A stretch of 32,511 nt of DNA from an uncultured Gammaproteobacteria bacterium. Its GTDB lineage: Bacteria; Patescibacteriota; Microgenomatia; Levybacterales; UBA12049. Position 1 is the stretch's first letter. Every line of letters starts with the position of its first letter. The stretch lies in the NCBI GenBank assembly GCA_964485315.1, contig CAZAIV010000113.1, forward strand, positions 1 to 32,511, in the 5' to 3' direction. Below are positions 23,194 to 27,921 of this stretch, piece by piece. The notes beneath the pieces were generated by a model, which saw only the letters and a program-made list of their open reading frames with translations, searched no databases and was not told the DNA's origin. The position numbers and the translations under genes are program-made.

Positions 23194-26100
23194 TCAAGTT
23201 TCTTCTGCTTTTTCTTCTTTCCTTTCATCTTTTCTCAAAGAAGTACCGGCAGAGATCAAACTCTCCTGCTCCGTTGCCTGTTTTTCCATACTATCCAAAA
23301 CTGCCTTTGCCGCTTGTTTCTTCGCTTTGAGATACAGGATAGCTTCAGACAAAGAGAAGCCGCCCAACAGAAAGAAAGGCAGGATATCATTCACTTGTTT
23401 CATTCCTTGCTGTATACTTGCCTGATCATCACTGGATAATAAATCAATAGTACCGTCAATCGAACTTATTTCTTCTCCCAACCATTCTTTCCGATCTAAT
23501 GCGCCGGGAATTTCAGCTTTTTCGTAATTATCCTGCCACAAGTGTTTGATCGCTTCATAATCTTCAATGTTTACTGTTTGTATGGTATTTTTCTCCGGTA
23601 ATAGTGTTGTCGGCGGGGTAACAGGCACCGGATTAATGTCCTTTTGCTGTAAAACTTCTGCCAATTGTGATGCCAATACATTACCACTGCCTTTTTTACT
23701 AAGAATTTCTTCCAGCACATGTACGATCCTTTTATTCGTCATATCTGCGGTACGCAGCGAAAGAAGCATAATGGCCAGATAATTCCCTTTCTTTACCTCA
23801 TTTTGTATTTGCATAAGCAAATGTTTCAATACACTCAACGGAACAAGTGATTGCTTACTTGTTTCTACTGCCTGTAACAGTGTCTTTGCAAAAGAATTCT
23901 TAACTGATGCTTCCTGTTCTATCTCTTTGCGAATTATCTTGCATTGCTCTTGCATATGTACATTTTGTACCCGTGAGGGATCTGCGATATACTGCAAGAT
24001 AAGCTGAAGACTTGCTAAGCCGGTATCGTTGACATATTGCATAATCTTTTTCACACTTATTGCCACAGGATCCTGATTCTGTCCTTCCTTTTGTAATAAA
24101 TCATGTAAGCCTGTAATCACTTTACGTCGATCAGGATTGGCAATCAGGCTTGGCTCTGCCAGTTCCCGCAACAACTTCGCTACTGCCGCAGTTTCATGAG
24201 AATCGGGCGAAGCAGAAGCAGCGGTAATGTTTTCTGTTTTCAGAATTGCATCTGCTAATTCGTTCTTAGACCGTTGTCCTATCATCTCCTGAACAAACGC
24301 TGTTACTTTTTCAGCTGTATCCGAGTGATCAACCAACGAAAGTATTTTTTGTGCAAGAGGATTTCCGTTTCTTTCCTCTTCTTCAAGTCGTGTTCTGATT
24401 TGCGTATACTCCTCATACTTCGTTTGTGCTGTCTTATTGGTAATAGCAAGAATACTCGATGCTAAAGGGTTACCGATTTGGCTCTGTCTCTCCAATTCAT
24501 TTTTAATCTGCAAGAGGGGCTGTTGTTGAAAAATTTCTTGATGCGGATTGGCTAGTTTGGCTATAAGATCCTGTAATTCGGACGTGTCAATATTCGTCAA
24601 GGTATCAGCGGTTTGATAAATAATTGTCGCCAGTGGATTCGCTTTTTGATTTTCCTGAACAAGTTGATTATGAAGTAAAGTATACAACTCTCTTTCTCTT
24701 GAATCTGTCGCCGTCGACAAGTTCGTTATCGTCAATAACAACCTCTGTGTATCCTGTAGTTGTTTATCAGTAAGCGAAATGCTCGGTTGGACAAGTTGTG
24801 CCGCCTGTAAAATAGCTGTGGCAACTCCATTGCCTTCTTCTTTGGCAGTTTGCAAACGGGCACTAAGCATCACCGGTTTTTTCTGCGCAAGTGTTACAAG
24901 TGAGTCTTTTGTCTGTTTAAGCTGCAGAGGTACTGTCTGCTGCTTAGTAAGTTTTGCCGCTTCAAACTTAGCAATATCACGCATTGTTGGGAGAGTTATG
25001 TTGCTTAATGACAACAATTCCTTATCACCGGTTGATAATTTTATCTTAGGGAAAACCGTTTGTTGTCTTGATTGCATAATGGGTTCTGTTCCTGCAAAAG
25101 GTGCAGCAATATGTTCTTCCATCTGCATTGTCTGAGGTGTACTTGTTGTTTTCTTCTCCTCTATTATTGTTGTCTCTTCTTCATTCTCCGACCCGGCGAT
25201 CTGCTCAAGCACTTCTTTTCCTGCTTGCTGTTTAGCTTTAAGGTAAGCAATAATTTCTGTTTGTGAGAATCCGCCAATCAGCAAAAACGGTAAAATGCCG
25301 GAAACTTGCTGCATACCTTCAGAAATTTTCTGTTGATCAGAGGATGAGAGTAAATCAATAGTTTTATTAATCGTATCCGTATCCGATGAGATCCATGACC
25401 TACGATCTTTATTTGTTCCTTCAAGATTTTGGGGTACATCCATTTTTTGATAATTATCGACCCACATTTTCTTAACCGCTTCATAGTCTTCAATGCTGAC
25501 TGTTTGAATTCTATTCGTTAGCGGCAGAGCAGAAGGAGAGGATTCAGCCCTCACACCTTTTTCTGAGAAAAGTGATAAGATTTTTGTCGCGAGCATGTCG
25601 CCTTTTTGCTTTTCATTGGTTAATTTATGCAGTAATGATTGCACTTCTGCCGCAACGGTTTTTTTGTCTGTAGATTTTGAAAGAATATCCTTAGCCAGCT
25701 TATTTCCTTCCTTACTTCCTTGCTTTAATTGTTCTCGAACTTTTGTTAACGTGGCAATATCTGCCTCCTTGGTCTTAACAGGTTTCGCCGCAGTCAGAAT
25801 ACTCGTGGCTACCGGGTTACCTGCCTGGCTCTCTTTTGTTAGAGTGTCGCGTAACTGGGTGAATTCTTTCTGTTGTGATACATCTTTTATTGAGGATGGG
25901 TTAGCCAATTTCTCCAAAACTTGTGAGATGCTAGAAAGTTCTGTCTTGTTTAGAGTGTTCATCGTTGAAATAAACGTGTTAGCTGTTGTGTTTCCTTTCT
26001 CGCTCTCCTGCATGATTGTTTGTTTGAGTTCTGTAGCTTGCGCTCTCTCAGTTATCGATCGAGCTGATTCGGGATGATTAATCGTTTCTATCGCATTTTG

Positions 26101-27921: not shown

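Follow-up and report, generated by a model that had tools for sequence, protein, structure and literature searches.

The window, which is the whole stretch of DNA analysed here, is a 32.5-kb contig from an ultra-small bacterium of a Levybacteria-type lineage of the Patescibacteria. A giant open reading frame (ORF) on its minus strand encodes a 1575-amino-acid (aa) protein, which we interpret, with a probability of about 0.6, as an 'extended VirB6', that is, a divergent TrbL/VirB6 subunit that forms a pilin-assembly platform and whose tails are probably extracellular arms. Membership in the VirB6 family is observed at the level of the protein family, and the partnership with a VirB2-like pilin is observed through the adjacency of the two genes. 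The C-terminal tail of the giant protein is a previously undescribed, lineage-restricted modular domain architecture. The unit of its evolution is a module that consists of an opening motif, variable helical units and a closing domain and that is found in one to five copies in the relatives.

The giant protein contains a polytopic membrane domain, which is connected to a two-module tail via a Pro/Ser-rich linker. The tail modules are built from units that carry a GN.LA..IL motif (GN units). The features of the protein and its two flanking genes, with supporting evidence from AlphaFold2 (AF2) models and their predicted local distance difference test (pLDDT) scores where available, are as follows.

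23194..27921, minus strand: giant ORF, 1575 aa, frame unbroken for 1575 codons (translation)
27841..27921, minus strand: signal peptide-like hydrophobic N-terminus, aa 1-27 (hydropathy flags aa 1-31; AF2 helix at aa 2-25)
27682..27840, minus strand: six-cysteine N-terminal segment, presumed extracellular, aa 28-80 (Cys 32, 41, 49, 63, 69 and 70)
26512..27681, minus strand: TrbL/VirB6-like polytopic membrane domain with six hydrophobic helices, aa 81-470 (hydropathy, AF2, homologues)
26407..26511, minus strand: Pro/Ser-rich linker, PPSPSSSPSYPPPPGYPPPGKYQP..., aa 471-505 (translation; AF2 pLDDT <50)
25162..26406, minus strand: tail module 1, aa 506-920, with opening motif, five GN units (three long, two short) and closing domain
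26329..26382, minus strand: opening motif 1, LQLANISVPTMRDIARFE, aa 514-531
25552..26304, minus strand: super-repeat 1, aa 540-790 (GN units at aa 574, 643, 701, 739 and 774)
25177..25524, minus strand: closing domain 1, aa 800-915, with the near-invariant ILPFLLxGGFSxxExxxYLKAK
23254..25035, minus strand: tail module 2, aa 963-1556, with opening motif, nine GN units (super-repeats 2 and 3) and closing domain
24961..25014, minus strand: opening motif 2, LSLSNITLPTMRDIAKFE, aa 970-987
24217..24936, minus strand: super-repeat 2, aa 996-1235 (GN units at aa 1030, 1094, 1150, 1186 and 1219)
23632..24216, minus strand: super-repeat 3, a duplication inside module 2, aa 1236-1430 (GN units at aa 1283, 1341, 1379 and 1413)
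23263..23598, minus strand: closing domain 2, aa 1442-1553
27929..28486, minus strand: VirB2-like pilin gene, 185 aa, ending 7 nucleotides (nt) before the giant ORF
20192..23161, minus strand: clpB, starting 32 nt past the stop codon of the giant ORF

The membrane domain and its pilin partner

The membrane domain contains six hydrophobic segments past the signal peptide (residues ~137-163, 175-197, 247-267, 270-292, 305-328 and 402-432), with which the AF2 helices agree. It is the best-conserved part of the giant protein and exhibits 49-60% identity and dozens of invariant residues across 59 homologues. Among 52 single-module relatives, which were picked regardless of their Pfam matches, 34 match the TrbL family (PF04610) at E <= 0.01 with a best E-value of 2.8e-7, and no other family is matched by more than one of the 52. 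The precomputed matches of the first seven relatives scanned include two over the PF04610 gathering cut-off and two more near it; relatives P0025 and P0061 score 27.8 and 27.1 bits, respectively, against a cut-off of 25.9. TrbL matches with listed coordinates run from about residue 2 to residue 184 of the 215-residue profile, occupy the same 170-180 positions and extend from the first transmembrane (TM) helix, TM1, to TM5. The TrbL-matching members share 39-66% identity with the window protein in the membrane domain.

The gene directly upstream encodes a protein that consists of a signal peptide, a Cys-rich segment and two TM helices with a short charged loop, as read from the translation. Two TM helices joined by a short charged loop are the hallmark of VirB2-like pilins. 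The window copy is weak by profile, with an E-value of 0.004 for an NCBIfam pilin-like conjugal transfer family and 0.15 for the type IV secretion system (T4SS) pilin family PF18895 (T4SS_pilin). In three related loci, the small proteins encoded upstream reach 28.1, 23.6 and 18.6 bits with PF18895, one of them above the cut-off. Neighbourhoods were counted over 74 species-representative genomes found with the closing-domain profile, and each denominator is the number of loci whose flank permits the test. In 62 of 64 loci, tblastn places a match to the window pilin immediately upstream on the same strand, and the gaps between the pilin and giant genes measure 1-8 nt. VirB2-like pilin genes adjoin virB6 in monoderm T4SS, and the pilins have been modelled on VirB6 pentamers (bioRxiv 10.64898/2025.12.18.695078; PMC12624023). 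Patescibacteria possess an MPF_FATA-like T4SS with VirB2-like pilins (PMC12102498).

The first-pass annotation of this DNA had compared the giant protein to extended VirB6/TraG-type proteins by analogy only. That resemblance is upheld and becomes one of homology because TrbL is matched in 34/52 relatives and a T4SS pilin gene lies directly upstream. VirB6 homologues are 'scarce' in Microgenomatia, 'suggesting extreme sequence divergence' (PMC12102498), and the giant protein family may be a good candidate for the VirB6 that was not found in that survey, encoded away from virB4.

The six-cysteine segment at aa 28-80 is particular to this genome and absent from 119 homologues examined. A similar segment occurs in the pilin-like protein (28187-28405, minus strand) just past the signal peptide, and the two match weakly by BLASTP, with an E-value of 0.014 and aligned cysteines.

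Several results weigh against the VirB6 interpretation. The window protein itself has no Pfam TrbL match at E <= 0.1 and none in NCBIfam. The AF2 monomer of aa 1-500 is of moderate confidence (pLDDT 66.7), and a Foldseek search of the PDB with this membrane-domain model returned four irrelevant matches at E > 5, with no solved VirB6 or TrwI; a profile search of the membrane domain against PDB sequences likewise gave nothing relevant. Neither VirB3 nor VirB4, VirD4 or another T4SS ATPase is encoded within 10 kb in four annotated related loci, and none of these was detected among the ORFs scanned on the 32.5-kb contig, where the ORFs at 9.5-11.7 kb were left unscanned. The virB4 gene of Microgenomatia is located near dnaA (PMC12102498). 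Finally, the invariant neighbours of the giant gene are cytoplasmic chaperone genes. The clpB gene follows on the same strand in every one of 59 loci, as an invariant neighbour in the Levybacteria-type subfamily, and dnaK lies upstream on that strand in 55 of 59. The gene order in four annotated loci is hrcA-grpE-dnaK-dnaJ-pilin-giant-clpB. Across Levybacteria-type genomes, the order dnaK-(dnaJ)-pilin-virB6ext-clpB (20192-32366 in the window) is maintained on one strand, even where dnaJ has been relocated downstream of clpB.

Sidedness of the tail

We estimate that the tail is extracellular at about two in three. Across homologues, both the N-terminal segment and the 198-246 loop have an even cysteine count (consensus CPPxC), and the 164-174 loop is rich in lysine and arginine (K/R). 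The paired cysteines and the K/R-rich loop thus place the N-terminus outside, followed by TM1, an inside loop, TM2 and an outside loop. Given a cleaved signal peptide and six hydrophobic helices, the C-terminus would be located outside. In R388, only two helices near the N-terminus span the membrane, and the remainder makes up the periplasmic stalk (PMC12857230); an R388-like arrangement would also position the C-terminus outside. The composition of the tail points in the same direction. Cysteine makes up 0.015% of the family tails (28 in 184,480 residues) versus 0.29% of the cytoplasmic proteins of the contig, and the S+T+N+Q fraction of the tail is 0.31 versus 0.17-0.22 in cytoplasmic proteins. 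The tail comprises 1,105 residues past aa 470, and its sole 19-residue window with a hydropathy above 1.5 (1513-1532) is in closing domain 2. Three relatives (P0159, P0049 and P0050) have weak, below-cutoff Cohesin-like or CARDB-like matches in N-terminal stretches of 60-170 aa ahead of the VirB6 domain. Such inserts are consistent with an extracellular N-terminus.

The same extended VirB6 could instead contain five true TM helices, as the classical Agrobacterium VirB6 does, and a cytoplasmic tail that docks substrates, ATPases or the DnaK/DnaJ and ClpB chaperones. The positive-inside rule fits this five-helix topology better than the six-helix one and counts against an external tail: the 292-304 loop is moderately basic, the 329-401 loop has almost no K/R (0.03) and there are lysines after the last helix. 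AF2 also builds aa 239-279 as a single continuous 41-residue helix, not as a hairpin. The same-strand dnaK and the clpB gene 32 nt after the stop codon would suit chaperone docking, and the C-terminal region of TcpH of pCW3, an extended VirB6, has been described as cytoplasmic. A cytoplasmic location is, however, difficult to reconcile with a cysteine content depleted ~20-fold relative to cytoplasmic proteins of the same contig, with the S/T/N/Q-rich composition of the tail and with the Pro-rich linker after the last helix, and it requires the very hydrophobic 270-292 segment (hydropathy peak 2.48) to stay out of the membrane. Moreover, a divergent subfamily with helix-turn-helix (HTH)-like units in its tails keeps the module design without chaperone neighbours, which indicates that the chaperone synteny is lineage-specific; both divergent loci examined (P0142 and P0144) have a different genomic context, and the pilin and clpB neighbours are absent there. 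We therefore regard a cytoplasmic tail as credible but somewhat unlikely.

One further candidate clue to a cytoplasmic tail was rejected. The relative P0084 (L084 8001-15338) appears fused at its C-terminus to a nonribosomal peptide synthetase (NRPS) condensation domain (E 3e-44), but it was treated as the product of a chimeric or error-rich assembly because the contig end holds frameshifted fragments, namely split DnaK, condensation and AMP-binding genes.

An external tail could also belong to a protein outside any T4SS, such as a surface fibril or adhesin anchored by a polytopic membrane domain whose likeness to TrbL is convergent. The missing TrbL match of the window protein itself, the lack of a fold match to a solved VirB6 and the lack of a nearby VirB4 would all be expected of such a protein, and the tail weakly matches a helical bundle annotated as a 'putative surface protein' in a PDB profile search (E 0.13). 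Convergence does not readily explain why 34/52 relatives match TrbL over the same 170-180 profile residues wherever coordinates were examined, or why a T4SS pilin gene is almost always adjacent, and no adhesin family matched the tail. The free-standing surface adhesin that the first-pass annotation had offered as a second analogy also gains no backing from any family match: no Pfam match to the FIVAR/GA-type helical-repeat surface adhesins is found in the giant protein, with the LPXTG wall-anchor motif not having been searched for. An adhesin unrelated to T4SS is improbable.

Modular architecture of the tail

The tail is divided into two modules, each of which is opened by the same motif (LQLANISVPTMRDIARFE in module 1 and LSLSNITLPTMRDIAKFE in module 2) and ends in a copy of the closing domain. 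The two closing domains are ~115 aa long and exhibit 54% mutual identity. The 14 GN.LA..IL units proposed by the first-pass annotation are found at their claimed positions, and a degenerate form of the pattern matches 14 times in the tail, versus a mean of 0.33 +/- 0.56 and a maximum of 3 in 2000 shuffles. A hidden Markov model (HMM) built from the 14 units recovers those 14 and no others (i-Evalues 1e-15 to 8e-11), a recovery that is not independent of the input because the model was trained on the same units. The units are spaced by 69/58/38/35, 64/56/36/33 and 64/58/38/34 aa, and this recurring pattern defines the three super-repeats, of ~190 aa, that had been described. The second motif described there is likewise present, as L(E/R)(K/R/E)(L/I)A(N/E)P at residues 553, 669 and 1251 and in looser forms at 1119 and 1309.

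A whole-protein self-BLASTP yielded the identity match alone, and the repeats emerged only when segments were compared with segments. Residues 542-919 match residues 1132-1556 (E 9e-50), residues 510-798 match residues 966-1241 (E 3e-30) and residues 1060-1239 match residues 1249-1436 (E 4e-10). These pairs indicate that module 2 corresponds to module 1 plus an internal duplication of ~190 aa.

An AF2 model of module 1, calculated from an alignment of 25 homologous modules, is entirely α-helical and consists of 19 helices (mean pLDDT 84.8; predicted template-modelling score 0.59). The long unit (~60 aa) is formed by three helices, of which the first ends in L..IANP, the second ends in ...ESQ.GN and the third reads.LA..IL.A. 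The short unit (~35 aa) adopts a helix-GN-helix arrangement and equals the long unit minus its first (L..IANP) helix. The closing domain is a five-helix unit that contains the near-invariant ILPFLLxGGFSxxExxxYLKAK sequence, and the opening motif has the consensus L.L.N(L/I)S.PTMRDIA(K/R)(F/Y)E. Over 26 modules, the mean column conservation is 0.61 in the closing domain, 0.58 in the opening motif and 0.38 in the middle units.

The tail lacks a known domain, as had been stated from the sequence, with no match in Pfam or NCBIfam and no PDB sequence match. Sequence and profile searches of the PDB with the tail gave only sub-threshold hits to designed bundles and the 'putative surface protein' (E 0.025-0.25), and Foldseek searches with the module 1 model against the PDB and the viral BFVD database returned only generic elongated helical proteins (E >= 0.04, TM-score ~0.1). 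Two domain assignments were considered and rejected: Pfam DUF7441 matches the start of the closing domain in 3 of 35 domains at E <= 1, none above the cut-off, and a LysM-like reading of the repeat units is unsupported for the window protein.

The closing domain marks a lineage-restricted family. An exhaustive HMM search with the closing-domain profile identified 343 representatives among 1.84 billion, 319 of them at E <= 1e-10. Nearly all full-length matches also contain the VirB6-like domain, and those without it are mostly short fragments. The giant protein family comprises more than 230 clusters, which are unnamed or 'hypothetical' except for two JGI entries with an apparently spurious name, and the sources of the family clusters are Levybacteria, Microgenomates or Patescibacteria. 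Many related-locus records bear the title 'uncultured Gammaproteobacteria', apparently a pipeline mislabel.

A survey of repeat number across homologues, which the first-pass annotation had called for, reveals one to five modules per protein. Full-length proteins contain one (58 proteins), two (101), three (33), four (3) or five (2) closing domains, and the modules range in length from 213 to about 1000 aa. Internal closing domains are nearest to internal copies of other proteins (177 versus 7) and last-position domains to last copies (118 versus 21); overall, 283 of 323 closing domains are closer to a copy from a different protein than to a sibling copy within their own. The closing domains are thus position-specific orthologues, which indicates that module duplication is mostly ancient with positions maintained, a minority being recent. 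The nearest relatives of closing domain 2 include the domains of single-module proteins as well as the last domains of multi-module proteins. The closest relatives of the window protein, P0005 and P0012, have a single module whose closing domain is nearest to that of window module 1 (78% and 66% identity, respectively).

Members of the divergent subfamily (e.g. P0142 and P0144) keep the opening motif, the first unit and the closing domain but contain ~28-aa HTH-like units (IA..L..S..TV..IL) in place of the GN units, and these give many weak Pfam HTH matches. The subfamily includes P0142 (L085 703-5838), P0144 (L086 212-7063), P0140 and P0151, with proteins of up to 3266 aa.

These HTH-like units raise the alternative that the tail is a nucleic acid-binding array for DNA taken up or delivered via a T4SS-like machine. 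The weak matches of the divergent members spread over HTH_23, Sigma70_r4, HTH_IclR, TrmB and others, and GN.LA..IL, as read by eye, loosely resembles the second half of a helix-hairpin-helix (HhH). In the window protein, however, no HTH or HhH family is matched at E <= 0.1 and the tail is acidic with a net charge of -13. The Pfam HTH matches of the relatives almost all lack an individually significant stretch, and the PDB profile matches are only to generic designed helical bundles. DNA binding by the tail is very improbable.

Since the DNA of the tail holds just three direct repeats, which are short (26-37 nt) and diverged (75-78% identity), the duplications are old and not an assembly artefact, as had been proposed. 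An artefactual origin of the ORF, by chimerism, misassembly or the running together of several genes, for which the evidently chimeric P0084 at its frameshift-ridden contig end could be cited as a precedent, is effectively refuted by the unbroken frame, by the recurrence of the same architecture in more than 300 clusters from independent assemblies and by its conserved synteny over 74 species-level loci.

Neighbouring genes, proposed role and known systems

The contig contains housekeeping genes typical of a chromosome of the Patescibacteria (CPR), which encode PNPase, S15, IF2, NusA, two Clp/Hsp100 ATPases, an M4 peptidase, DnaJ and DnaK. The window ClpB (20192-23161, minus strand) has P/Q/A-rich low-complexity extensions of ~75 aa at the N-terminus and ~140 aa at the C-terminus, and in related loci the ClpB beside the giant gene is between 891 and 1431 aa long. 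In about a dozen loci, clpB is followed by an M4 peptidase gene. The second Clp/Hsp100-type ATPase (15183-17600, minus strand; 805 aa) has two N-terminal hydrophobic helices and appears to be anchored in the membrane. A gene for a 110-aa polytopic membrane protein (17597-17929, minus strand) with the motif FFQP(I/L)KNEYR.GLVGFS lies just ahead of the ATPase gene and overlaps it by 4 nt. An ATPase with a hydrophobic N-terminus is also encoded a few kb downstream of the VirB6-like gene in three related loci (L001 18329-21069, L003 18249-21046 and L004 18534-20939), in two of which the 110-aa membrane protein is conserved. Two divergently oriented genes (28489-28875, minus strand, and 29062-29448, plus strand) encode 128-aa proteins with a TM helix at the N-terminus and a common C-terminal motif, VDVP.G.EQ.WI.KF (BLASTP E 6e-7), and one of the proteins has a weak fervidolysin-prodomain-like match. 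The minus-strand gene of this pair ends 2 nt before the pilin gene and is preceded by a promoter-like site (28933-28906). At E < 1e-5, related loci gave no match to either 128-aa protein.

By homology with solved VirB6 systems, residues 81-470 of the extended VirB6 would oligomerise as a central platform, on which the neighbouring VirB2-like pilin would be recruited and polymerised. The tails, one per VirB6 subunit, would then be located outside the cell as length-adjustable helical arms around the pilus base. The conservation pattern and composition suggest that the closing domains are the working ends of these arms. They could bind envelope or host-surface partners, or take over the roles of VirB5/VirB8/VirB10-type parts, which are missing from these monoderm systems. 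The helical units would serve mainly as spacers, because they can be swapped for another repeat type while the opening motif and closing domain stay. A more specific proposal, which we consider distinctly unlikely as a whole, is that five tails from a pentameric VirB6 pass through the envelope and form an external collar or set of arms round a VirB2-type pilus, with the hydrophobic ILPFLLxGGFS turns contacting or inserting into the host surface. If that were true, the T4SS-like machine that epibiotic Patescibacteria depend on would contact the host through this new domain family, with a reach tuned by the number of modules.

The family also offers a candidate for the missing VirB6 of Levybacteria-type lineages, whose genomes encode the pilin-VirB6 pair apart from virB4, between dnaK and clpB. 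As a defined and foldable domain that has yet to be named, the closing domain brings with it a testable module grammar, and the series from one to five modules is a natural set for relating tail length to function.

The giant protein shares its overall plan, a TrbL/VirB6 core followed by a large hydrophilic region, with the extended VirB6 proteins (Rickettsiales RvhB6, Anaplasmataceae VirB6 paralogues and MPF_FA ConG/TcpH/Orf15-type proteins of 700-900 aa). Repeat-rich tails have been reported for the Anaplasmataceae VirB6 paralogues, and extended VirB6 proteins, like the giant protein, occur in host-dependent bacteria with reduced genomes. Unlike the known extended VirB6 proteins, the window tail has a grammar of its own (an opening motif, then GN or HTH-like units, then the 115-aa closing domain), lacks a Pfam, PDB or fold match, is confined to ~343 clusters of Levybacteria-type Patescibacteria and is predicted to be folded (pLDDT 84.8), not 'unstructured'. 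Extended VirB6 proteins are considerably larger than canonical ones, and the function of their added domains is 'not yet known' (PMC12857230).

F-like TraG similarly combines a polytopic VirB6-like N-terminus with a large C-terminal domain, although family scans reveal no sequence relationship between the tails, and the window host is monoderm with a repetitive tail of variable copy number. Mating-pair stabilisation and entry exclusion are functions of the C-terminal domain of TraG, whose site of action is outside the cytoplasm and which contacts a partner cell.

The gene pair resembles PrgH(B6)-PrgF(B2) and R388 TrwI-TrwL, in that a small pilin gene, encoding two TM helices and a short charged loop, adjoins virB6 (bioRxiv 10.64898/2025.12.18.695078), and VirB6 forms a pentameric stalk that recruits VirB2 (PMC12624023). 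PrgH and R388 TrwI differ from the giant protein in that they are ~300 aa long, lack a tail and are encoded with VirB4 in a T4SS operon, whereas the window pair is flanked by dnaK/dnaJ and clpB, and no VirB4 is encoded within 10 kb.

Also comparable are the T4SS of Saccharibacteria and other Patescibacteria (Wang et al. 2023; Quinonero-Coronel et al. 2025, PMC12102498), which belong to the same phylum, are monoderm and possess VirB2-like pilins. In Ca. Southlakia epibionticum, epibiotic growth requires both the virB6 gene and the pilin array (as cited in PMC12102498 and PMC12857230). Compared with the T4SS set of PMC12102498, the window family would represent a divergent, tail-bearing VirB6 that is encoded apart from virB4.

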